A stretch of DNA of 64,000 bases from an uncultured Nitrososphaeraceae archaeon (GTDB lineage Archaea; Thermoproteota; Nitrososphaeria; Nitrososphaerales; Nitrososphaeraceae): the NCBI GenBank assembly GCA_963779615.1, contig CAVZZA010000005.1, forward strand, positions 1-64,000, given 5' to 3'. Shown here piece after piece: positions 10,773 to 60,457 of this stretch; within the stretch, counting starts at the first letter, position 1; every line of letters starts with the position of its first letter. The position numbers were made by a program, and so were the translations under genes. The notes under the pieces are model-generated. The model saw nothing but the letters and a program-made list of their open reading frames with translations. It searched no databases and was not told where the DNA came from.

Positions 10773-11414
10773 CTAGTTTTTAACTTGGGTAAAGTTGGCG
10801 AGTGTCAAATCGATATTGCTTGGGGAAACCTTTTGCAGTTCCCGCAGGTAGATGCTGTACCTTGAGCTAAACCCGTTATTGTTCATGTCAAAATGAACAT
10901 CCACGTTGTTTGGCTCTGACATCAGCGCAAGGTACGTAAGCAGCTTCCTGACGTCCCTGTCGTTGGTGTGTTCGGGCTCGTTGACTATGATTGACAGCAG
11001 CAAAACCAGCCTTCGCCTAAGCCCAAGGATGTAAAAGGAGTGTGTAAGGTATAGCTTGGCGTCTATGTAGTCACCGGCCAGTGCGGATAGGCTGAAGTCA
11101 AACAGCAGGTTCTTTAGCGGCAGTCCCGAACCACTGGCCTGCAACTGCCTGTAGCGTCGGGGGCTTTCCACCATCTCCTCGACTGCGGCATCCTTCAGAA
11201 ACTTGTTCAGTAGTTTGACAACATCCCTTAAGCTTATTGTGTTTTTGCCCATATCCAGCACACCCAGCCTTGCGGCAATTCCGTCCAGGTCCTCAAAATG
11301 AAACTGCGTGTCGATATCCGTGTTGCCCGTAAGCCTGCCAATGCCCTCGGCATGGGTTTCAACAGGAATGTACTCCACAAGCCTCTCAATTTCTTTAAAT
11401 ATCCCAAACGTCAT
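10773..11414 (-). CDS. hypothetical protein (visibly GC-rich gene)
   Basis: Long open frame from ATG 11414 with GC-rich codon usage; no family recognised. Confidence 0.7.
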   Translation of the reverse strand: MTFGIFKEIERLVEYIPVETHAEGIGRLTGNTDIDTQFHFEDLDGIAARLGVLDMGKNTISLRDVVKLLNKFLKDAAVEEMVESPRRYRQLQASGSGLPLKNLLFDFSLSALAGDYIDAKLYLTHSFYILGLRRRLVLLLSIIVNEPEHTNDRDVRKLLTYLALMSEPNNVDVHFDMNNNGFSSRYSIYLRELQKVSPSNIDLTLANFTQVKN

Positions 11415-12004
11415 TTGACAGTTAATCAACTATAGTGCATTGGTATTGGTTATTATGGTATTGATATGCGCAAAACAATGCGTGTAATGCGCACATATCT
11501 CCCAGGTGCCATGCTTTTTGTTTGATTCTTCATCCATCATAACAAGTCTCAAAAGCAGAAATAGGTTTGGTCTTGCAGTGCGTCTTGTTTGGTAAAAGTA
11601 TCAATAACTGCAGCAAAACAAGAATATGCAACATGGTAGTCTAGTTTGATTTGATCTTTAATATTTTAGACTTTGTTAGTTTGATGGAAAAAATTAACAT
11701 GTTTAAAATGTTATAACCCCCCATGAACTTGAAGAAGAAGAAGAACACTCCCTTCGGGAATATATTGGATATTGTTGCCTTCCTGTCGGGATTGTTTCGT
11801 ATAGCCATAAATGTTATCCAATACAATAAACCGGCATTTGTTTGAAAGCTGAAAAAAAATTGTCGTCAATTCAATAGTTTATATGGCAATAATACAATCC
11901 ATTATTAAATTAGGTTATTGTGACTGTAAAATGCTATTTTTGCTGGAATCATTTGAAATCCAAGTTATAAAGGCGATTAGACACTATTAATAACGAGTCA
12001 GTGC

Positions 12005-12376
12005 TTGATATGCTTAATAGGAACGGAGTGTATATATATAATAATGGTAATTGAAAAACTTTTTAATCGCGGGGTTATGACTGTAGATTCTCTTCATAGT
12101 AATAACATAGTTAAAGAAACAGACAACAAAACAAGTATTTTTAGTGAATCAAATGAAGAAAAAGAAAAATCCTTCCGCCTGATGTATTCTCAAGAATTAA
12201 TGAGCAAGAAACAGCAAGTATATGGTACATACAGAGGATTTAATGAATTAGAAGACGAAAGGAAGAAAGTAAGACACCAGATGATGAGAACCCCTGGACG
12301 TAGAGGGGAAATAATAAAAGATGAAGAAATCAACAAGGAAATCAGCAGACGATATAATGAAAATCAAATGGAATAA
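12005..12376 (+). CDS. hypothetical protein, resembles a conserved thaumarchaeal family (start uncertain)
   Basis: RTPGRRGEIIK.EEI motif in a charged helical protein. Confidence 0.65.
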   Translation: MICLIGTECIYIIMVIEKLFNRGVMTVDSLHSNNIVKETDNKTSIFSESNEEKEKSFRLMYSQELMSKKQQVYGTYRGFNELEDERKKVRHQMMRTPGRRGEIIKDEEINKEISRRYNENQME

Positions 12377-12727
12377 ACCTTTTCCATCCAAATAAATATG
12401 TCATATTATTATTAGCACTTAAAAAACCTAATAAATAATTCTCTATTATCATCTTGATAAATAAAGAAACCAATTATCTATTGCATGTTAATTTGCATTT
12501 CCTTTTTTCTGCCGAAATGAAACAATCACTTTAATTACATATCGTTTCCACACTATACCAAATAGTGTAGCACAGTAATTCGTTTGATATTACACTTTTT
12601 TCTTAATTGCAAAATAATGATTGCACATCGTTTATCCATTTCAAATTATTTTTTAGGCAATTATAATTATAAAACCAAACTGCGCTTTTCCCTTATTTTC
12701 AAGCTATTGATTAGGGCCATTAAAGTG

Positions 12728-12797
12728 TATGCGAAATTTGCATATATTTCATTTGTAAAACATATATTTTATATTATATATATGCAAATTTCGCATA
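12728..12797. promoter_or_regulatory. pair of TATGC-N7-GCATA palindromic operator-like sites forming a perfect 20-bp inverted repeat
   Basis: TATGCGAAATTTGCATATAT (12728-12747) and its exact reverse complement ATATATGCAAATTTCGCATA (12778-12797), upstream of TATA-like TTTAAATA (12831-12838). Confidence 0.7.
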
Positions 12798-12861
12798 TAT
12801 TTTACATTTTTTTCATATTTTTTAGATAAATTTAAATAGCTTCCGGGGCACACTAAACTAA

Positions 12862-13230
12862 ATGAACAATACAACTACTTCCATGTTAAAAAACCAGCAG
12901 TACTCTGGCTGCATCGAAAGCTGCAACGAATGCATGATGGCCTGTGAGGCCTGCTGCACCGAATGCATGACCACGTCAAACACCCAGATGGCTGGGATGA
13001 TGGGAAGGTGCATGATGATGTGCAGGGACTGCGCCGACATGTGCAGGATGGCATCCATGATGATGTGCAGGGGAAGCGAGTACGCAAAGCAGGTGTGCAA
13101 CATGTGCGCCGACATGTGCGAGGCATGCGCAACGGAGTGCGAGAAGATGGGCGACAAGATGGAGGTGTGCAAGCAGTGCGCCGACATGTGCAGGAAATGC
13201 GCACAGGAATGCAGAAGCATGATGAGGTAA
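12862..13230 (+). CDS. Cys-rich four-helix bundle protein (Csp3/DUF326-like), Met-rich and His-free
   Basis: Repeated CxxxCxxC motifs (CADMC three times); 22 Cys, 23 Met and 0 His in 122 aa; no signal peptide. Confidence 0.9.
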   Translation: MNNTTTSMLKNQQYSGCIESCNECMMACEACCTECMTTSNTQMAGMMGRCMMMCRDCADMCRMASMMMCRGSEYAKQVCNMCADMCEACATECEKMGDKMEVCKQCADMCRKCAQECRSMMR

Positions 13231-14143
13231 CCGGAAAAATCATTACCAAACAGCAACATCAATAAAATCTTTTTTTATAAACATATAATAAAGACAAGTT
13301 TTTACGAATAACAGCATAAATGAACTAAACCACTTTCTCCCAGTTTTCGCAAGGATATTGTAATTACCTAAAGTCATTTGAGACACACTAAAGCTAATCA
13401 TCCATGTGGCATCATGTTTCTATTGACAAACTAGAGGGTTTTCATAGATATTTACAAATGTGAATATTTCCCATCATTTTTAATGCCAATTGAGCATAAA
13501 ATGGTATAAAGTTGCATACATAAATCCTAATTTACATAGAGCCTATAAAAGATATTACTTAATTGATACCATATGGTTATGGTTGATTCAAAAAATATAC
13601 AAAAAAGCGCTAACAGAGGGATTCAGATTGATTCCAATATCAACACTAACCATCCAGACAACGAAAAAAGAATGTCATTAAATAGTGACTGCAATCCCGA
13701 TGTTATCATAGGCAATGGATTGGGACATCTTTATGGATCTTGGTAGTTTGGATATCAATCATATTAAAATACAAAGAACCCAATTCAATATAATTTTTTT
13801 TGTTTATGATTGTACTCAACAGAATTGATAGAGTATATTCAAAACACATTGCAAACCCTTTTAATAATTAGTTAATGATCCATTTTTAATATATATATTT
13901 ACAATATCAAACCATAATTTGTCATACCCTAACATAGTGATATTACCATAAATGATATCAATAAAGCCATATTCCCAAATATCTCATATATCTAAAGCCA
14001 AAACATCACTATTAATTTAATCCAGAGGTCAAAAAATTTGATTAGAGATGGTGTCACAATGCAACATAAACCCCCACTCTAATCAAATGCATGTTTTTCT
14101 TCAACTCAATCGAATTGTAAGTGTTTTTATTAATGGTTATTGG

Positions 14144-15149
14144 TGCTTTGTTGCATGATTCTTAAAAATCTGCAATCATGTGGCACATTTTGTCTAAAAA
14201 GATATCATCTTATTATATAACGATGCTTTTAATATCATTTCTTTTATCATATTCTCAAACTTTACAGAATAAACGTACTCCCCAAACGTCCTCTTTATAC
14301 ACGAAAACACGGTTTCGGCCATCCATCTTTGTCCATAGCTTACGCTATCCTTCCATTTTTTAATATCATTTCTTTGGGCTAACACTGATAGGTTCCTAAG
14401 AAAATGTCCTGTTTTCAATCTGACTCTTGCATTCTTTCTTACTTTAATACAAGGCAGGATTCCATTGTCTGCCATGCATCTAAAAATATCATTATTATCA
14501 TAGGCACCATCAGCAAATAGTTTGGATATTGTTATTTTTCCACTATCAGATTTTATGACATTCTTAACCAATTCAGGTAACGCTTTGCTATCGTGAACAT
14601 GCTCGTCAGTAACCTTCATCGAAAGGATTTTCTTGCTCTTCACGTTTACTGCTATGTGGATTTTCAAATATCTCTTTCTTATACTCCATTTGTCTCTTAA
14701 CCACTGGCCTCTGTTCGTAACCTTGATGCCGGTACTGTCTATTGCAATGATAAGGTAGTCATCTTCAGATTCCATGCTTTTGTTATTGTCTTCTGTTTTC
14801 ATATCCAGCCTGTTTATTCTCCTGCTTATTGTGGTATAATCTGGAATGGAAGGTACTTTCCCTTTCGCATGTCCTTGTGCAATTCCCTCTGTCTGTCTGT
14901 ATGGAAGATGAAAGTACACTTTGGCATAGCCAAGTAAAAGAAGAAATGTATTAGGATAGTGAAATGGCTCACCGATTTTGTCTTTATTCATCTCTTTTAG
15001 CTCTGCATCCCAGTTGTCAATAACGTCAAAACCAATCAGTATTTCACCTCGTCTAACTAGAAATTGGTTGTAGTATGGCCATTTCATATGGTTTACTAGT
15101 TGAGGCTCACTAAATGTATTTGGAAATAGGGGAATCATGCAACAAAGCA
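14144..15149 (-). mobile_element. intact IS5-family element (IS903/ISH1-like)
   Basis: Perfect 18-bp IRs TGCTTTGTTGCATGATTC; perfect 9-bp TSD GGTTATTGG (14135-14143, 15150-15158). Confidence 0.97.
14194..15087 (-). CDS. IS5-family DDE transposase
   Basis: MKWPYYNQFLVRRGE, AIDSTGIKV, ADGAYD, YGQRWMAETVFSCIKR; frame intact. Confidence 0.95.
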   Translation of the reverse strand: MKWPYYNQFLVRRGEILIGFDVIDNWDAELKEMNKDKIGEPFHYPNTFLLLLGYAKVYFHLPYRQTEGIAQGHAKGKVPSIPDYTTISRRINRLDMKTEDNNKSMESEDDYLIIAIDSTGIKVTNRGQWLRDKWSIRKRYLKIHIAVNVKSKKILSMKVTDEHVHDSKALPELVKNVIKSDSGKITISKLFADGAYDNNDIFRCMADNGILPCIKVRKNARVRLKTGHFLRNLSVLAQRNDIKKWKDSVSYGQRWMAETVFSCIKRTFGEYVYSVKFENMIKEMILKASLYNKMISF

Positions 15150-15426
15150 GGTTATTGGCAATATTAAAATTCTCAAGTGTGACTTTTTTACTACATCCAT
15201 ACCATTATTGCACATATATTAAACATCACTCTTCAGACAAAAAACTAACTTTTTTATGTCGATTCTCTTTAATGGTTTTTTTCCATTAGTCCAGTGCTAG
15301 TTTTTTTGAAAAGCATCCCTTAATAAGTAGAAAATATTCAAGACCAGCCATTAACCATTAAACAATAAGCCACAATAACAATTTCCATATATCCATGTTG
15401 TTGAGCCATCACAATATCTTGGGATA

Positions 15427-15530
15427 TACGCAGAATTTGCATGGAGTATGAATGAAAGGTGATGATGGTCAGAATCTTTTCATAATAAATCATATATCAA
15501 TACTTCCAAATATGCAGATACTACATATTT
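15427..15530. promoter_or_regulatory. two further TA(T/C)GC-N7-(G/A)CAT sites upstream of the ComA-HTH gene
   Basis: TACGC-AGAATTT-GCATG (15427-15443) and AAATATGC-AGATACT-ACATATTT (15508-15530, ending 8 nt before the ATG). Confidence 0.5.
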
Positions 15531-15537
15531 TGTTATT

Positions 15538-16524
15538 ATGCTAGACAGTCTAACTGAGAACAGGGTCGACCATAAAAAGCCACGTCATGAGGGAATTACC
15601 TACATAATAGATAAGTTTCAAGGTTTTGACAGACAGAATTTTGAGATAATATCCCCTTTTGTAGACATGGTGAAAATCTATGGAGCTTATCCCCTTTTAG
15701 TATCCGAAGAGCACCTAATAAAGAGGATCGACTATTATCATGGTAATAATGTTTTGGTTTCTACTGGAAGCACGTTAACCGAGTATGCCCTTAGAGAAAA
15801 CGTATTTGAGAAATTCGTTGAAGAATCCAAAATAGCCGGATTTGACATTATAGAAATCAGCGAAAATAACATACATCTTTCCATTGAGGAAAAGAAAAAA
15901 ATTACAAAAATTCTGAAATCCCACGACCTAAGGCACCAGTGGAAGGTAGGCAGAAAGGACCCACGAAGACAACTGACCTTGGATGAGACAATCAAAATGA
16001 TGAATGAAGTTTTGGAGCTAAACCAGGAGAAGATAATACTTGAAGCTAATTTAGGTTATAATGTCGGAATATACGATGAAAAGGGAGACATAAAATGGAA
16101 TATTCTGTCAGCCATTACATCAAAAATCTCACCAAATAACATTATTTTTGAAACACCACTTGAAATTCAACAGGCTGTGTTAATTGCTGAATTTGGGCAA
16201 AGAGTGAATCTTGGAGAGGTAAAACTAGAAAACGTTGCCTCGGTGGAATCCCAAAGAAGAGGATTCCTCTCAAAAGCAAGCTTTAGCATAAACCCAGTAA
16301 AAAAGGGACCCGAAGGTAGTCCCGCTACAAAGTTTATCTACTACATAATCCGCAACAAACACCCTGTGGAACAAAGCGAACTGATTCATATGACTAATCT
16401 TCCAAGAAGAACAGTTCAGGCATCAATTGAAGAGTTAAGAAATCAGGGGCTGATAATGGAAAAAAACAGTCTTGATGACACCAGAAAAAAGGTGTATAAC
16501 TTGGTTAAGGATGAATGGGTATAA
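15538..16524 (+). CDS. phosphosulfolactate synthase (ComA)-like domain fused to a C-terminal winged HTH
   Basis: KPR..G.T.IIDK, EIS, VGRKD, IIFETP..QQ..LI.EFG..VNL give the ComA fold; the tail EQSELIHMTNLPRRTVQASIEELRNQGLI...DTRKKVY is a MarR-type wHTH. Confidence 0.85.
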   Translation: MLDSLTENRVDHKKPRHEGITYIIDKFQGFDRQNFEIISPFVDMVKIYGAYPLLVSEEHLIKRIDYYHGNNVLVSTGSTLTEYALRENVFEKFVEESKIAGFDIIEISENNIHLSIEEKKKITKILKSHDLRHQWKVGRKDPRRQLTLDETIKMMNEVLELNQEKIILEANLGYNVGIYDEKGDIKWNILSAITSKISPNNIIFETPLEIQQAVLIAEFGQRVNLGEVKLENVASVESQRRGFLSKASFSINPVKKGPEGSPATKFIYYIIRNKHPVEQSELIHMTNLPRRTVQASIEELRNQGLIMEKNSLDDTRKKVYNLVKDEWV

Positions 16525-16940
16525 CCTAACACAGATATTTTGGTTACCGATCCAAAGGGCCTTTCACCAAACTCAACACCTTTCAATGATAATAGCAGCA
16601 AAACAAGTAAACAAAAAAAAGAATAAAAGCTTTAGAGCCTAATTTCTTTTAGGCTGAAATTTACCTTTAAATTCAAAATTTCACATTTATTTATAGAATA
16701 AAATTACCAATATCAGTTTTCATCTGGAAAAAAACGACAGTCAAGTTCACCCAAACAAGAATTAGATCACCAAAAAAGCGGAAAAATAATAGATGAAAAT
16801 TAAGAACACGCCTAAAATAGTTTTTATTTAACTATCAATGAGGTCACAAGGATTAATTACAACCCAAACAGTAACAAACCCATTTCAACGGACAGAAAGA
16901 ATCTTGATATACGGGCCCAAAGTTATTAAAAGAGATTTCT

Positions 16941-17885
16941 GTGCATAATTCATCCGAAGATAACAGAAATGTAAAAGATGTTGACAATATTGAAAATAAA
17001 AACAGATTCAAAGAAAAAAAAGCAAAACCTTTGCAAGAAATAGACTCGCCTACCATAGTGGAAAAAAACAAGGTATTGCGTTCCTTTTTTGTCAACAAAC
17101 ATAAAATTAACTTGACCGAATTAGCAAATACAATATTATTCATATCCGTTTTTGTCGGCATTTGGCAACTGGTATATATCATAGGAATATGGCCAAAAAT
17201 TTCTCTACCTTCGCCTTTAATGGTCGCAGAGGCTTTCTATGATCTATTTCAAAATAATACTCTTCTAACAAGTATCGGCATGACTATGTATAGACTTGCC
17301 GTTGGTTTCATCATATCAATAGCAATAGGGATGGCGGTTGGTCTTGCAATGGTAAAATTCGCAGGATTTGGAAAAACAATGGGCTCATTCGCTGTAGGGC
17401 TACAGTCCTTCCCCAGTATTGCATGGGTTCCGTTTGCAATACTACTCATAGGGTTGAATGACGCTGGAATACTGTTTGTTGTAATAATGAGCTCCATATT
17501 TTCTGTGATGATGTCTACATACAGTGGCATTCGCAACATTCCTACAATATACATCCGTGCTGCAAAGAATATGGGTGCAAAAGGGTTACACTTGTTCAGG
17601 CACTTAATGATACCAGCGGCAACTCCAGCCTTGATTACAGGAATAAAACAAGCGTGGTCTTTTGCATGGCACGCCCTAATTGGCGCAGAAATACTTATGG
17701 CTGCCTCGATAGGTATAGGGCATATTCTATTGATTGGGAGAGAGTTTCAATCCATGAGCCAGATAATAGCATCCATGATTACAATATTTGCTTTGGGTAT
17801 GATATTTGATAGAGTGATATTTATGAAAATAGAGGACAAAGTGAGGGAGAGGTGGGGACTAAAACAGGAACAAGACAATGTTTGA
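16941..17885 (+). CDS. NitT/TauT/Ssu-type ABC transporter permease (SsuC-like)
   Basis: LPSP, GLQSFPSIAWVP, EAA-like loop RAAKNMGA, WHALIGAE. Confidence 0.92.
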   Translation: MHNSSEDNRNVKDVDNIENKNRFKEKKAKPLQEIDSPTIVEKNKVLRSFFVNKHKINLTELANTILFISVFVGIWQLVYIIGIWPKISLPSPLMVAEAFYDLFQNNTLLTSIGMTMYRLAVGFIISIAIGMAVGLAMVKFAGFGKTMGSFAVGLQSFPSIAWVPFAILLIGLNDAGILFVVIMSSIFSVMMSTYSGIRNIPTIYIRAAKNMGAKGLHLFRHLMIPAATPALITGIKQAWSFAWHALIGAEILMAASIGIGHILLIGREFQSMSQIIASMITIFALGMIFDRVIFMKIEDKVRERWGLKQEQDNV

Positions 17886-18213
17886 TCTTGACCAAAAAAT
17901 ATAACAACACTGTCAGAAAAAATCCGAAATAAAGCGGTTTAATTATTTTGTATTCAAAAACAAATGCTTATCCATCTATCTATCATAACGCTTTTGACGA
18001 TATTGAAGATATCTTTTATAAAGAATATATTACTGCAAGGAAAAAATGCGTTCTAGTTAAACAAAAGATCAAAAAAATTCAAAAACACAGCACAAGACTA
18101 TCTTAATGTGTTTTTAATCGCATAATATTCGCCTAAAAAGAGAAAATTACGCATAAATTACTTTTTTTGCCTATTTCTAATTGCTAATACGTTCCTTGCT
18201 TTAAAAATAATCT

Positions 18214-19380
18214 GTGGACACAAAAACAAAATTTGGAATTTCTATCGGAATAATTATTGCAGTGGTAATATCATCTCAATCAGATAATCATGGGTTATTC
18301 TCAAATAGTGAAAGTAATACCATAAAAACCGTCAACAACAATGATGCAGAATCAAAAACATTAAGACTTGGATATTTTCCAAATGTAAATCATGCGCAAG
18401 CCATAATTGGCCTGAAAAATGGAGACTTTCAAAAGATAATAGAAGGTAACAATACCAACCAAGGTAAAATAAAGATAAATGAGTTTGTTTTTAGCGCAGG
18501 GCCATCAGCCATAGAAGCGTTATTTGGCGGTCAAATTGATGCGGCATACGTGGGCCCAAACCCCGCAATTAGTGGGTATATCGCGTCGGGTGGAGAAGGA
18601 TTACGAATAGTATCGGGGGTTGCAAGCGGGGGTTCTGTTTTTATAGTAAGAAATGACGCTGGAATAGAATCAGCAAAGGATTTAGGGGGCAAAAAATTCG
18701 CCTCACCCCAACTGGGCAACACACAGGACATATCCTTAAGAAAGTACCTCATCAACAACGGATTTAACACAGTCGAAAATGGCGGGAATGTTACGGTAGC
18801 TGCAATAAAACCAGCAGATATCCTCACCCTCATGTTAAAAAAAGAGGTTGACGGGGCATGGGTTCCTGAGCCCTGGGGGGCAAGGTTAGTAAATGAGGCA
18901 AATGGTAAAGTATTTGTTGATGAACGCGATTTGTGGCCACCTGAAGGCAAATTTGTCACAGCAAACATCATTGTAAGGACCGATTACCTGAAGGAAAACC
19001 CAGATGTGATAGAGAAGCTACTGGAGGCTCATGTGAATGAAACCTTGTGGATTGACGCTCGCTTAAACAGTTTAGATAATGGCACTGCACAAGAAAACAG
19101 CAGCAGTAAGGTTATGGAGGTTGTAAACGCATTTAACGATGGCTTAAAGCAAATAACAGGAAAAACAATCCCTGATAATGAGTTGGAAGAATCGCTGAAA
19201 AGGATGGACTTTACATATGATCCTTTGAAGCAATCCCTCTATAAAATAGGAGATGACGCAAGCAGTTTAGGGTTCATTGGCAAAACCAAAGGAAATCAAT
19301 TAGACATTTCGGGAATATTTGATTTGTCCCTGTTGAATAAAGTACTGCAAGAAAAAGGTCTTGAACCACAAGTACAATAA
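18214..19380 (+). CDS. aliphatic-sulfonate-type ABC substrate-binding protein (SsuA-like), copy 1
   Basis: N-terminal anchor; GYFPNVNHA, AGPSAIEAL, ASPQLGNTQD, WVPEPW. Confidence 0.92.
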   Translation: MDTKTKFGISIGIIIAVVISSQSDNHGLFSNSESNTIKTVNNNDAESKTLRLGYFPNVNHAQAIIGLKNGDFQKIIEGNNTNQGKIKINEFVFSAGPSAIEALFGGQIDAAYVGPNPAISGYIASGGEGLRIVSGVASGGSVFIVRNDAGIESAKDLGGKKFASPQLGNTQDISLRKYLINNGFNTVENGGNVTVAAIKPADILTLMLKKEVDGAWVPEPWGARLVNEANGKVFVDERDLWPPEGKFVTANIIVRTDYLKENPDVIEKLLEAHVNETLWIDARLNSLDNGTAQENSSSKVMEVVNAFNDGLKQITGKTIPDNELEESLKRMDFTYDPLKQSLYKIGDDASSLGFIGKTKGNQLDISGIFDLSLLNKVLQEKGLEPQVQ

Positions 19381-19418
19381 GTAAAGTATTGTGACCAATG
19401 TTTGGTTTTATTATACTT

Positions 19419-19451
19419 ATTTATGGTGTGTTCAGTAAACACACCATAAAT
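19419..19451. other. perfect 14-bp hairpin between the two binding-protein genes
   Basis: ATTTATGGTGTGTT-CAGTA-AACACACCATAAAT. Confidence 0.7.
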
Positions 19452-19668
19452 TATGATATTTAACAATGGTTAACATATGCCATAATCATCCAAAGTAACA
19501 ATAATAATAACAAACCAGATGGGTGAATGTCAACTCAGGGTATTTTAAAATGACAGTTTTGGTTTATGGTGGTAGGAAACACTAAAAAAAGATGTTCAAA
19601 TTGCATTGAAAAGTGAAAAACTGCACATTCAACAGGAATAATAAGTGACTATCACGATAAAATTCTAG

Positions 19669-20868
19669 ATGAGACATAACACATCAAAGTCAAAACACAA
19701 AGCAAAATCACAATCTGCGCAAGTCAAAAAGTTTGTTCCAATTATCCTCTCGTTGATTTTAACTATCGCAGTATTAGCAAGTTATTATCCAATGGTTAAC
19801 ACATATGCACAAACTGACTCCCAGGCCCCAAAGACGCTAAAAATAGGTTATTTTCCAAACATAAATCACGCCCAAGCAGTTATTGGCCTCAATAATGGAG
19901 ACTTTCAAAAGGTTTTGGGCAATACAAAGGTTGAAACGGTTGTTTTCAATGCAGGCCCATCAGCCATAGAAGCACTATTGGCAAAAAGGATAGATGTCAC
20001 CTACATAGGGCCCAACCCCGCAATCAACGGCTATGTGGCTTCAGACGGGAAAGATGTAAGAGTCATTGCAGGTGCGACTAGTGGAGGGGCATCATTTGTG
20101 GTAAGAAATGACGCTGGAATAGAATCAGCAAAGGATTTAGGGGGCAAAAAATTCGCCTCACCCCAACTGGGCAACACACAGGACATATCCTTAAGAAAGT
20201 ACCTCATCAACAACGGATTTAACACAGTCGAAAATGGCGGTGACGTCACAGTGGTACCTGTGTCAAATGCGGACATAGTCACGCTGTTTTTGAAGAAGGA
20301 AATTGACGGGGCATGGGTTCCTGAGCCATGGGCAACAACACTGGTAAATGAGGCAAATGGTAAAGTATTTGTTGATGAACGCGATTTGTGGCCACCTGAA
20401 GGCAAATTTGTCACAGCAAACATCATTGTAAGGACCGATTACCTGAAGGAAAACCCAGATGTGATAGAGAAGCTACTGGAGGCTCATGTGAATGAAACCT
20501 TGTGGATTAACGACAATAAAGAAAAAGCAATAAACGAATTTAATGCTCAACTCAAAAAGTTAACCGGAAAAACAATTCCACAGGCAGTGTTAGCAAACGC
20601 AGTAACAAAACTAGAGTTCACATACGATCCAATAAAGTTGTCCCTGATTAAAGATGCAAATGATGCCTATGATTTAGGGCTGTTGCAGAAAGGAAAAGAA
20701 CGACCAACCTTAACGAATATCTATGACTTGGCAGTATTGGACAAGGTTCTTGCTAAGAAAGGCCTTGATACCATCAACAGCGCAAATATTGGGTCACCCA
20801 TCAACACCGGCAATAAAACCTCATCTAACGGTACATCCGGTGATGCTTTGTCAGATATAGTCACATAG
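19669..20868 (+). CDS. aliphatic-sulfonate-type ABC substrate-binding protein (SsuA-like), copy 2
   Basis: Same motifs as copy 1, with a signal/TM segment. Confidence 0.92.
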   Translation: MRHNTSKSKHKAKSQSAQVKKFVPIILSLILTIAVLASYYPMVNTYAQTDSQAPKTLKIGYFPNINHAQAVIGLNNGDFQKVLGNTKVETVVFNAGPSAIEALLAKRIDVTYIGPNPAINGYVASDGKDVRVIAGATSGGASFVVRNDAGIESAKDLGGKKFASPQLGNTQDISLRKYLINNGFNTVENGGDVTVVPVSNADIVTLFLKKEIDGAWVPEPWATTLVNEANGKVFVDERDLWPPEGKFVTANIIVRTDYLKENPDVIEKLLEAHVNETLWINDNKEKAINEFNAQLKKLTGKTIPQAVLANAVTKLEFTYDPIKLSLIKDANDAYDLGLLQKGKERPTLTNIYDLAVLDKVLAKKGLDTINSANIGSPINTGNKTSSNGTSGDALSDIVT

Positions 20869-59377: not shown

Positions 59378-60457
59378 CTACTTTTCCAAATCTCTAAAGT
59401 AAGGCACCACTTTATTTCCAAAGGTTTCTATATTTTTGTATAAGCCATCACCCCAGAATCGAATTATAAAGTGATTTGTTCCAGCTTGAATAAATCGCTC
59501 TAACATTTCTATAACATCATCCGGACTTCCTACACCGATTGCAGTACGAGCCACTTCATCTGGAATTTTAATAGATGCTTTTTTCATCTGTTCCATAAGT
59601 TCAGGTTTATTCATCGCATATTCGGTAAAATATTTACGAAAGTCAAATTCAGAATCCTGAGGAATATTATGGACTTTTAAAAGTTCTGGTTTATAGAGAC
59701 TGACTTTTACAGCATTTTTCATTTTTTCCCAAGCCCCCTCACCGTCTTCTGTCAAGTAAACATCGACGTCGTTTGCGAATTCAAAGTCAGGAATATCACG
59801 CCCTATTCTTTTTGCATTTTCTTTTATAACATTCGAATGAAATTTAAATAATTCCGGGGTGTAACCAATTGGTATCCACCCATCACCAAAAGTTGCGCAT
59901 AACTCCAGGGTTTTCGGAGCACCTGCTGCAATATATACAGGCGGCCTTGGCTTTCTGATTGATTTTGCTTGCAAGCACGCTTCTATTAATTTATAGTATT
60001 TGCCATCATAATTTACCTTATTATCGGGATTTGACTCAAATAACTTCTCAATCACTTCTAACTGTTCTTTAAACTTTGTTACTGGTTTACTAAATTCGAT
60101 TCCAAAATCAATAACGTTTTGTGCCTCTCCTGCCCCGATACCCAATATTCCCCGTCCTTTAGTTATTCTATCCAAAGTTACAGTAGATAATGCAATAGTG
60201 GAAGGGTGCCTTCTTATTGCATCAGTTACACAAGCTCCTAGCTCCACCTTATTTGTGACTGCACCAATAGCTGCTAACATTAGCCAGGCATCATTAACTA
60301 CTGCATTTTTCCATTGAGGTACATTTGTATGATCCATTGCCCATATAGAATCGAAATTTGTTCTATCAGCAACCTGGGCAGCAGTGATAACCTGTGTTTC
60401 ATCCAAACCAAGCCTTGCAACATTTAACCCAAACGTCAAACCAAATTTAATTTTCAT
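59378..60457 (-). CDS. LLM-class (possibly F420-dependent) oxidoreductase
   Basis: FDSIWAMDH, LDRITKGRGILGIGAG, GDGWIP. Confidence 0.92.
   Translation of the reverse strand: MKIKFGLTFGLNVARLGLDETQVITAAQVADRTNFDSIWAMDHTNVPQWKNAVVNDAWLMLAAIGAVTNKVELGACVTDAIRRHPSTIALSTVTLDRITKGRGILGIGAGEAQNVIDFGIEFSKPVTKFKEQLEVIEKLFESNPDNKVNYDGKYYKLIEACLQAKSIRKPRPPVYIAAGAPKTLELCATFGDGWIPIGYTPELFKFHSNVIKENAKRIGRDIPDFEFANDVDVYLTEDGEGAWEKMKNAVKVSLYKPELLKVHNIPQDSEFDFRKYFTEYAMNKPELMEQMKKASIKIPDEVARTAIGVGSPDDVIEMLERFIQAGTNHFIIRFWGDGLYKNIETFGNKVVPYFRDLEK

Follow-up and report, generated by a model that had tools for sequence, protein, structure and literature searches.

A conserved operator-like palindrome shared by a ComA-fold/winged-helix protein gene and a Csp3-type gene: a candidate regulon in Nitrososphaeraceae

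Genes and palindromes at the locus

The window analyzed here consists of the first 64,000 nucleotides of contig CAVZZA010000005.1 (C5:1-64000) of an uncultured Nitrososphaeraceae archaeon (assembly GCA_963779615.1), the genome of which comprises 3,169,391 bases in five contigs (36% G+C; 92.5% complete). Homologues of the genes in the region of interest carry the names Candidatus Nitrosocosmicus and Nitrososphaeraceae. The region contains a gene for a Cys/Met-rich protein of the Csp3 type (DUF326 family), a gene for a protein with a ComA-fold domain and a C-terminal winged helix-turn-helix (ComA-wHTH), and genes for an ATP-binding cassette (ABC) permease and two SsuA-family binding proteins, the second of which is followed by the genes of the ribosomal proteins L1 and L10 (Table 1). 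Our subject is a 17-bp palindrome, TATGC-N7-GCATA, which stands in two exact copies upstream of the Csp3-like gene and in two degenerate copies upstream of the ComA-wHTH gene, and which is supported by comparison among genomes as a real, conserved operator-like element common to both. A sequence-only reading of the window had proposed that these palindromes mark a sulfur regulon. The four sites do lie at the coordinates, and carry the numbers of mismatches, that it gave, and the SsuC-like gene and both SsuA-like genes do follow the ComA-wHTH gene co-directionally, all on the plus strand.

Table 1. Features of the region, in window coordinates
Feature	Position	Strand	Remarks
Distal palindrome, Csp3-like gene promoter, TATGCGAAATTTGCATA	12728..12744		exact match; 134 nt before ATG, 53 bp from proximal site
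Proximal palindrome, Csp3-like gene promoter, TATGCAAATTTCGCATA (reverse complement of the 12728 site)	12781..12797		exact match; 81 nt before ATG
Third half-site, TTCATA	12812..12817	+	its C lies 20 bp past the C of the right half-site; read directly
TATA-like A/T box	12827..12838	+	about 28 nt before ATG of the Csp3-like gene
Csp3-type Cys/Met-rich protein (DUF326), four-helix bundle, 122 aa	12862..13230	+	PF03860, 34.6 bits vs 20.4
Insertion sequence, including 9-nt target duplications	14135..15158	-	18-nt perfect terminal inverted repeats; DDE_Tnp_1 E 5e-28
Distal palindrome, ComA-wHTH gene, TACGCAGAATTTGCATG	15427..15443		2 mismatches; 111 nt before ATG, 84 bp from proximal site; matrix score 15.9
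Proximal palindrome, ComA-wHTH gene, TATGCAGATACTACATA	15511..15527		1 mismatch; -27 to -11, ends 10 nt before ATG at 15538
ComA-fold (TIM barrel) and C-terminal winged-helix protein, 328 aa	15538..16524	+	PF02679 E 1.2e-61
ABC permease (SsuC/TauC-like)	16941..17885	+	PF00528; SsuC NCBIfam 101.9 vs cut-off 347
Weak palindrome-like site, TACGCATAAATTACTTT	18148..18164		66 nt before first SsuA-like gene; score 4.2, reached by 4.5% of background genes
SsuA-family binding protein 1	18214..19380	+	NMT1_2 E 9e-33; TIGR01728 152.5 bits, below 163.5
Degenerate promoter module, second SsuA-like gene	19591..19644	+	decayed palindrome GATGTTCAAATTGCATT at -78, score -1.8
SsuA-family binding protein 2	19669..20868	+	TIGR01728 204.2 bits, above 163.5

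The palindrome at 15511-15527 adjoins a TATA-like A/T run and is presumed, from this position, to be an autoregulatory operator. The position of the TATA-like box before the Csp3-like gene suggests that the mRNA of that gene would be leaderless or have a very short leader.

Within the window, exact matches to TATGC-N7-GCATA were counted twice versus 0.08 expected, with 0 of 100 shuffles reaching 2; matches with at most one mismatch occur 6 times versus 2.29 expected (1 of 100 shuffles reaches 6), and those with at most two mismatches 27 times versus 30.4 expected (82 of 100 shuffles reach 27). With respect to background frequency, therefore, the two exact sites of the Cys/Met-rich gene beat chance, but the ComA-gene sites are at expectation by counts. 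As the palindrome is both rare and local, plain counting is the wrong test, and the two ComA-gene sites are taken as real because they are conserved in other genomes, not because of their number. Genome-wide, there are six occurrences of the exact 17-mer, each of them upstream of one of five DUF326 copies; these six are duplicated copies rather than cases of convergence, and the DUF326 copies provide no independent evidence.

Placement and conservation of the palindrome

A symmetrized weight matrix was derived from 13 sites of ComA-wHTH genes, all from genomes other than that of the window (the ComA-gene matrix). When run over the 3,169,391 bases of the window genome, it placed six Csp3-like promoter sites at ranks 1 to 6, the site at 15511 at rank 7, and another Csp3-like copy at rank 8. 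An upstream site scoring at least 14 was found for 3 of 2302 genes in a background set—a crude call of open reading frames (ORFs) that left out the Csp3-like genes, longer antisense ORFs having been chosen—and the top two of these were the ComA-wHTH gene and an ABC ATPase gene. With a combined matrix, sites were observed 76 nt before an ABC ATPase-permease pair on another contig, C4, and 81 nt before a 74-aa zinc-ribbon-like ORF. In the window genome, sites scoring at least 14 number 25, versus 6 for a composition-matched (complemented) control matrix.

In related genomes, where gene starts were placed by alignment to the proteins of the window genome, the ATPase, rhodanese, and second SsuA-like genes have their best site within 250 nt at -76 to -80. 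The top scores (23.4, 19.3, and 15.2, respectively) are of a size reached by fewer than 0.3% of background genes, and the site of the second SsuA-like gene scores 9.6-15.2 at -78 to -80 in six relatives. The sequence-only reading had expected a matrix scan to show enrichment upstream of sulfur genes: Csp3-like promoters are indeed ranked top, and the ATPase, rhodanese, and SsuA-like genes of the relatives are recovered, but the SsuA-like sites in the window itself are weak.

Csp3-like promoters were compared across 30 fetched DUF326 loci, 23 of which are of the window type (approximately 70-100% identity for whole genes). A proximal site with no more than two mismatches has been retained at -71 to -84 in 17 of these 23; another four are truncated copies whose exact site lies farther upstream, and the last two have a site at -80 with more mismatches (scores 18.7 and 13.8). 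A distal TATGY-N7-RCATA variant lies at -124 to -135 in most of the orthologous Csp3-like promoters. None of 7 loci with the distant DUF326 type (46-50% identity) has the site.

The placement is equally regular across gene classes. Twenty-seven promoters belonging to five such classes—the Cys/Met (Csp3-like) gene, ABC ATPase, rhodanese, SsuA-like gene, and zinc-ribbon ORF—were aligned on the highest-scoring site between -90 and -55 relative to the ATG. The dyad was found to start 76-84 nt before the ATG, with G3 and C13 present in 27/27. After it come a third half-site, with a C at position +33 counted from the start of the palindrome (20 bp past C13) in 22/27, and a TATA-like A/T block at +46 to +53. 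An unrestricted scan of 250 nt again returned a best site at -76 to -81 in most of the 27. Such fixed spacing would imply leaderless or short-leader transcripts in all five classes. Furthermore, whole helical turns would separate the two sites of the DUF326 gene (53 bp), the two of the ComA gene (84 bp), and the dyad from the third half-site (20-21 bp). The putative operator can thus be described as a 17-bp dyad with a consensus of about TATGCAAAnTTTGCATA, TAYGY and RCRTA half-sites being tolerated. Of the promoter module of the second SsuA-like gene in the window, the right half-site remains, as do a third half-site, TGCACA, whose C is at position 19624, and, at 19637-19644, the TATA-like AATAATAA.

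Homologues of the ComA-wHTH protein were found in 35 of 41 related genomes; within the genus they form two groups, orthologues (77-92% identity) and paralogues (63-66%). Of the 14 orthologous promoters for which upstream DNA is available, all 14 have a site with two mismatches or fewer at -26 to -32, and 4 have one at about -110; in the orthologue alignment, the blocks near the start and at about -110 alone are conserved, the remaining intergenic DNA having diverged. None of five paralogue loci has such a site. A wider sample, drawn from species-representative genomes, comprised 801,940 nt in 80 named Nitrososphaeraceae loci; it yielded 72 sites with scores of 14 or more, versus 0 for the control matrix. 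Of these strong sites, 51 lie at most 260 nt upstream of a ComA-wHTH gene, 12 before ATPase, DUF326, SsuA-like, or rhodanese genes, and 9 elsewhere.

When these loci are grouped by identity to the ComA-wHTH protein of the window, a site scoring at least 14 lies upstream of the gene in 16/17 loci of the clade with at least 76% identity, 10/12 of the sister clade (68-70%), 0/11 of the paralogues (63-66%), and 21/36 of the 56-61% clade, which is mostly Nitrososphaera. The 68-70% and 56-61% clades had contributed no sites to the matrix. In the former, all ten sites are at -108 to -111; in the latter, 17 of the 21 are at -25 to -31 and 4 at -65. The dyad of Nitrososphaera stands within a 100-bp divergent region between an SsuA-like gene and the ComA-wHTH gene, its position having been kept despite a very different G+C content. 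Thus, the motif is conserved upstream of orthologues, all 14 promoters keeping it and three clades carrying it, a point on which the sequence-only reading could have failed. With respect to synteny, the reading fared well in the clades with at least 76% and 56-61% identity, where importer genes lie within 7 kb in 17/18 and 34/37 loci; the figures are 5/12 in the 68-70% clade, many loci of which are short contigs, and 0/13 among the paralogues. The rhodanese gene is in the locus in 7/12 cases in the 68-70% clade, directly upstream. In two other genera of the order, in which the ComA-wHTH protein has 55% and 40% identity, an SsuA-ATPase-permease operon is divergent from its gene; the 55% case has five ATGCA/TGCAT half-sites in a 90-bp intergenic region.

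The encoded proteins and neighboring genes

The N-terminal part of the ComA-wHTH protein (residues 12-244) matches PF02679 with 208.8 bits versus a gathering score of 25.2, and shows approximately 33% identity to ComA from M. jannaschii (1qwg; E 3e-33 by sequence). With the NCBIfam ComA equivalog (TIGR03849), it scores 163.1 bits, below the cut-off of 280. A Foldseek search with the whole AlphaFold model recovered the ComA fold alone, with matches to 1qwg (E 8.1e-15; template modeling score 0.57/0.73) and 1u83; a further match, 9cm1, is a designed icosahedral particle, the sequence of which is named phosphosulfolactate synthase in the PDB. The 85 residues at the C-terminus are predicted to form helices at 262-273, 279-286, and 290-302 and a strand at 306-309, the predicted local distance difference test (pLDDT) being 71-88 over residues 251-310. 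This tail weakly matches MarR/SlyA (4mnu; E 0.015), and the precomputed annotation of a few homologues includes PF12802. Within the fused family, conservation is highest in the wHTH segment, with P262, K265, F266, R291, T292, and L300 invariant in 15 diverged members and an LPRRTVQ helix invariant in 22 homologues. The family comprises at least 15 clusters at 50% identity, including proteins from Thermoplasmata and other Nitrososphaerota, and its members, where named in public records, are called phosphosulfolactate synthase.

Compared with ComA (PF02679; 1qwg from M. jannaschii and 1u83 from B. subtilis), the protein has the same fold and clear homology over residues 12-244, and differs in the 85-aa winged-helix tail, the score below that of an equivalog, the E136K, R171N, and R244L replacements, and the lack of a detected ComB gene. 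A set of 20 stand-alone homologues has 56 columns conserved at 80% or more, and the window protein retains most of these, the replacements being E136K, R171N, R244L, G27F, G78S, and N227E. In the stand-alone homologues, E136 is present in 19/20 and R171 in 17/20; the fused proteins keep R171 in 7/15. Fifteen positions that are nearly invariant across the superfamily are kept in the window protein. ComB (PF04029) gave 0 matches in the genome, which is 92.5% complete, in a search whose control matches 7 of 14 known genomes. A literature search returned nothing usable on the ComA active site. On the basis of the score below the cut-off, the replaced residues, and the lack of detected ComB, TauD, and SsuD, the ComA domain is read as an enzyme-descended ligand-binding domain. 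It is predicted to be a sensor rather than a pathway enzyme, although catalysis with sulfite and phosphoenolpyruvate (PEP) could persist. We know of no ammonia oxidizer that makes coenzyme M.

The paralogue group (63-66%; L016-L020, L061-L063, L091-L104) occurs in many genomes of the genus and was not found in the window genome at its 92.5% completeness. A different conserved block, GTATAATTCAATATAC ... TATTGATAC, lies in its upstream DNA, and a rhodanese gene lies approximately 4.9 kb downstream in 7 of 13 loci. Considered as the basis of a possible second regulon, the group showed neither motif nor importer.

The Cys/Met-rich protein was confirmed to be as rich in these residues as the sequence-only reading had stated (37%): 22 Cys and 23 Met in 122 residues, or 36.9%. 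That reading had treated it as an unknown storage-like protein; instead, it is a homologue of the copper-storage proteins, with Cu(I) binding predicted. Csp3 (PDB 5fig) matches over residues 13-120 with an E of 3.3e-18, and approximately 20 further solved Csp entries match; TIGR04401, a Csp1-family model that includes the leader of Tat-exported Csp1, scores 41.3, below 100. Read from the sequence, the protein has no obvious signal peptide. The family had already been noted in this order, Csp being reported to have been acquired by the ancestor of Nitrososphaerales (PMC7554672).

Like Csp3 (5fig, 5arm, and 6ei0), the window protein is a four-helix bundle rich in Cys and of similar length with an aligned Cys pattern; unlike Csp3, it has 23 Met besides its 22 Cys, five gene copies, a dyad promoter, and sulfur-gene rather than copper-gene neighbors. 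The five DUF326 copies encode proteins 92-100% identical, and their promoters are duplicated as well (91-99% nucleotide identity). The genes with their promoters lie at 10773-13265 in the window and at C4:343952-346398, C4:337767-338330, C5:495800-497313, and C1:419591-420047. The same two ORFs, neither with a Pfam family (one of 218/197/213 aa, the other of 123/134 aa), accompany three of the five. One copy is cut off by the end of contig C4, so the repeat probably broke the assembly. Among 31 genomes of the genus, 17 contain Csp3-like matches, with 0-5 per genome. In the seven genomes covered by both searches, the window type of DUF326 was found only together with a regulator of the orthologue group; since kin are not independent, this co-occurrence is only consistent with a link.

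In eight relatives, genes for DUF326, an ATPase-permease pair, a tandem rhodanese (E 7e-108 to PDB 1uar), ComA-wHTH, the permease, and two SsuA-like proteins, followed by L1, lie within approximately 15 kb. In the window genome, the cluster is split: the 329-342 kb region of contig C4 holds the ATPase-permease pair, an insertion sequence (IS) fragment, a DUF326 copy, a DUF202 gene, the rhodanese gene, a zinc-ribbon ORF, and MsrB. A rearrangement thus appears to have split the cluster in this genome, with decay of the sites at the SsuA-like and rhodanese genes. No ATPase gene is present in the window, the dyad-bearing ATPase-permease pair being on C4.

The genes for MsrB and a DUF202 membrane protein adjoin the Csp3-like gene both here (C4:329765-330175 and C4:339547-339966) and in the closest relative (L051:2432-2839 and L051:1624-2052). 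No dyad was seen before either; the neighborhood may matter for a protein with 23 Met. The zinc-ribbon ORFs (C4:341456-341782, C5:498382-498606, L051:8020-8340, L052:4904-5215, and L053:922-1233) encode products of 74-108 aa that contain two CxxC pairs and match no Pfam family, and are conserved in a position divergent to the rhodanese gene. Dyad-like sites lie before them at -78 or -81, with scores of 18.7 and 4.9 and one decayed to -3.8; these ORFs are possible extra members of the regulon or co-factors.

As regards the importer genes, the 417-nt gap between the ComA-wHTH and permease genes suggests separate transcription. A block, ATTGATATACGGG, distinct from the dyad, is located at approximately 16900-16916, about 40 nt before the permease start, and is conserved in 6 of the 6 relatives' loci shown, with differing flanks; it may represent a promoter belonging to the permease gene itself, or else another operator. 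A further block, TTTTTTGCCTATTTCTAATTGCTAATAC, at approximately 18162-18190 ahead of the first SsuA-like gene, shows near identity across 7 of the 8 loci compared and is far better conserved than the weak dyad-like site just upstream. The second SsuA-family protein is distant from solved TauA and SsuA structures (E 2e-7 to 8e-6). An NCBIfam lead from SaoP/SaoX for the permease was rejected, as these belong to an unrelated selenoprotein-linked transporter and the score is far below the cut-off. The best match in the genome to SsuD, far below threshold, is a luciferase-like monooxygenase ORF at 59462-60298 on the minus strand, 40 kb from the cluster.

The proposed regulon and its alternatives

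Taken together, these results make it probable, in our view, that the region belongs to a local regulon in which the ComA-wHTH protein binds the dyad, represses its own gene, and controls the Csp3-type, importer, and rhodanese genes as well as the zinc-ribbon ORF. The motif, its positions, its conservation, and its linkage to these genes were observed directly; from them we infer binding by the ComA-wHTH protein and the sign of regulation. The ComA TIM barrel would be the sensor—its ligand perhaps sulfite, PEP, (phospho)sulfolactate, or an imported sulfonate—and the C-terminal winged helix would be the DNA reader. At its own gene, the dyad stands between the TATA-like run and the ATG, with the second site approximately 84 bp upstream. 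A protein bound there would block assembly of the pre-initiation complex and so probably represses itself, in keeping with the autoregulation that the sequence-only reading had suggested. At the target genes, the dyad lies approximately 40 nt upstream of TATA, with the third half-site two helical turns on, beside the presumed B recognition element (BRE). This arrangement is typical of activation in archaea, and repression by spreading would also be compatible with it. Within the genus, the targets would be an SsuABC-like importer (the ATPase-permease pair and the SsuA-like genes), the tandem rhodanese, the zinc-ribbon ORF, and the Csp3-type protein. Of the palindrome-linked regulon drawn by the sequence-only reading, the ComA-wHTH and Cys/Met genes stand, but the permease gene lacks a site and the SsuA-gene sites are degenerate in the window (4.2 and -1.8). 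At the same time, comparison of genomes supports a regulon wider than had been drawn, with the ATPase-permease pair, the tandem rhodanese, and the zinc-ribbon ORF added and the second SsuA-like gene covered.

Several results weigh against this proposal. All of the evidence comes from comparison among related genomes, and relatives are not independent samples. By counts alone, both sites near the ComA gene are at background level, and the loose form TATGY-N7-RCATA is not enriched genome-wide in five relatives (e.g., 15 versus 16 for the control). A reciprocal matrix built from the Csp3-like promoter sites ranks 15427 at approximately 25th and leaves 15511 outside the top 45. Sites in the window genome are weak at the first SsuA-like (4.2), second SsuA-like (-1.8), and rhodanese (6.1) genes, and the permease gene after ComA has no dyad (best upstream score -5.0). 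In the 56-61% clade, 15 of 36 loci score below 14, and the paralogue group keeps the LPRRTVQ helix yet has the dyad in 0/11 and the importer in 0/13 loci. As for the protein, the AlphaFold model was built from a shallow 22-row alignment and is mediocre (mean pLDDT 67.9), and all HTH matches are below curated cut-offs (HTH_27 20.4/22.2, TrmB 18.7/25.6, MsvR 23.2/220). M. jannaschii ComA is a trimer, and a dimer would suit a dyad operator better. In addition, TauD gave 0 matches in the genome and the SsuD model a best score of 64.6 bits versus 518; as no SsuD/TauD desulfonation enzyme was found, sulfonate is not secured as the substrate.

Some of these points would also fit the absence of any regulatory link, the exact sites then having arisen through recent duplication of an AT-rich promoter and the ComA-gene sites resembling them by chance. 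The count at up to two mismatches, which is at expectation, and the confinement of all exact 17-mers to duplicated DNA speak for this view, but a matrix from other genomes ranks the Csp3-like promoters on top, the position is kept in 14/14 orthologous promoters and in Nitrososphaera at a very different G+C content, 72 sites contrast with 0 for the control matrix, and the placement at -76 to -84 is fixed in five unrelated gene classes. The matrix ranking, the fixed placement, and the control-matrix comparison essentially exclude chance. A different factor, such as a global regulator or the zinc-ribbon protein, might bind the palindrome, with ComA-wHTH as one more regulated gene, possibly encoding an enzyme with an accessory domain. 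The connection between dyad and protein was drawn from sequence comparison, paralogues with an identical putative recognition helix lack the motif, the ComA fold may trimerize while the operator is a dyad, and the HTH assignments fall under the family cut-offs; moreover, the zinc-ribbon ORF is conserved divergent to the rhodanese gene and has its own site at -78 or -81. Nevertheless, we consider another binder unlikely: the motif follows the ComA-wHTH gene through three clades of varying cluster content and 51 of 72 strong sites stand directly upstream of that gene, a core-promoter site at the ComA-wHTH gene alone is the usual signature of autoregulation, and the wHTH is the most conserved segment, with six invariant residues in 15 diverged members. 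Furthermore, no other recognizable regulator or DNA-binding gene is conserved in the clusters of five relatives (L051-L055), the ORFs of which were read by eye, with no Pfam run.

The regulon could also be real and yet answer to copper or thiol redox, with a Cu(I) buffer or store of the Csp3 type at its core, the importer and rhodanese providing its sulfur or dealing with Cu-thiolate chemistry, and the ComA domain re-purposed for a different ligand. Clear homology of the Cys/Met-rich protein to Csp3 speaks for this reading, as do Met-rich stretches, which typically serve as ligands of Cu(I), the presence of MsrB in the split cluster on another contig, and the five near-identical copies (0-5 per genome among 31 of the genus), which would resemble metal-driven gene amplification. 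In N. viennensis, a Csp homologue is reported to be up-regulated under copper limitation; both promoter motifs published for that condition differ in sequence from the dyad (PMC7785015). The Csp3-like gene is present in 17 of 31 genomes and lies within 7 kb in 3/18, 1/12, and 2/37 loci; many genomes keep the regulator and importer without it, and the constant partners of the regulator are the SsuABC-like genes and the rhodanese. In the five clusters L051-L055, reading by eye revealed no conspicuous gene for a copper transporter, CopA/CopZ, or a multicopper oxidase. A copper response is accordingly judged improbable.

A more specific form of the proposed sulfur-linked regulon can also be drawn. 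Rhodanese is a thiosulfate sulfurtransferase, the product of which is sulfite, and sulfonate breakdown yields sulfite as well. A ComA-derived sensor of sulfite or a C3-sulfonate (e.g., sulfolactate) might switch on a "sulfur feast" program, in which the importer and rhodanese supply sulfur to the multicopy Csp3-type bundle with its 37% Cys+Met; this protein would then store sulfur in reduced or sulfane form, perhaps in a Cu-S cluster. This version is quite unlikely in our estimation; if true, it would give Csp3 a storage role not known for it and reveal an undescribed family of archaeal sulfur-status regulators.

The proposed regulator has several known counterparts. TrmB/TrmBL1 and SurR, the latter being the sulfur-response regulator of Thermococcales, are one-component proteins combining a wHTH with a sensor, in which the position of the site decides between activation and repression. 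Like these, the ComA-wHTH protein would join wHTH and sensor in one chain and use a palindromic operator downstream of or overlapping TATA at its own gene and upstream of TATA elsewhere, and, as with SurR, regulation would be tied to sulfur. Unlike in TrmB and SurR, a ComA TIM barrel takes the place of the sugar-binding or CxxC redox domain as the proposed sensor, the wHTH stands at the C-terminus, and the operator sequence is another one. Bacterial ssu and tau operons are controlled by the LysR-type CysB, Cbl, and SsuR or by CymR, with small-molecule signals related to sulfite or thiosulfate. A dedicated regulator coupling an SsuABC/TauABC-type importer to sulfur status would be common to both cases; the regulator family is unrelated, however, the host is an archaeon, no SsuD, SsuE, or TauD was found, and the regulon would include a rhodanese and a Csp3-type protein. 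Finally, BirA, PutA, and NadR are trigger enzymes or enzyme-repressor fusions, in which, as proposed here, an enzyme fold is joined to a DNA-binding domain and a metabolite site controls transcription. A literature search found no ComA fold in a trigger-enzyme or regulator role, and a search of titles and abstract openings returned no description of a ComA-wHTH regulator, of the dyad, or of the regulon. One-component wHTH regulators and Csp3 proteins are known kinds; what appears to be new is a sensor with the ComA fold, an operator set in a promoter module of three half-sites, and a Csp3-type gene coupled to sulfur genes.

Ammonia-oxidizing archaea drive soil nitrification, and to our knowledge almost nothing is known of their specific transcription factors, operators, or sulfur control. 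What is offered here is a triplet: a putative regulator mis-named in databases as a coenzyme-M enzyme, a candidate 17-bp operator with a defined promoter architecture, and a small set of targets. It would add a new sensor fold to the archaeal one-component regulators and link the genes of sulfur uptake to a protein of the copper-storage type, which is central to a metabolism that depends on copper. The presence of the family in Thermoplasmata suggests that the principle may be wider, and the annotation "phosphosulfolactate synthase" for fused proteins of 320-340 aa should be reconsidered.

Only two soil/rhizosphere metatranscriptome runs were found to contain 5-6% of the sampled words. Contigs from these runs, 90-95% alike to the window, cover the ComA-wHTH, permease, SsuA-like, and Csp3-like genes; they are contigs of relatives, from which level, strand, and starts are not readable, and stretches that they leave uncovered carry no meaning.

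The IS between the Csp3-like and ComA-wHTH genes was located by the sequence-only reading at 14144-15149, splitting the two palindrome-bearing genes, and this is correct: without it, the distance from the DUF326 stop to the ComA ATG is approximately 1.29 kb. The element is 1006 bp long, with inverted repeats at 14144-14161 and 15132-15149, an IS5/DDE_Tnp_1-type transposase gene at 14194-15138 on the minus strand, and a target duplication, GGTTATTGG, at 14135-14143 and 15150-15158. It is a real and recent insertion and not part of the regulon; from its upstream position, it is 380 nt distant from the ComA-wHTH gene, both dyads of which remain intact. A transposase with 49% identity is encoded beside the cluster in the relative L058.

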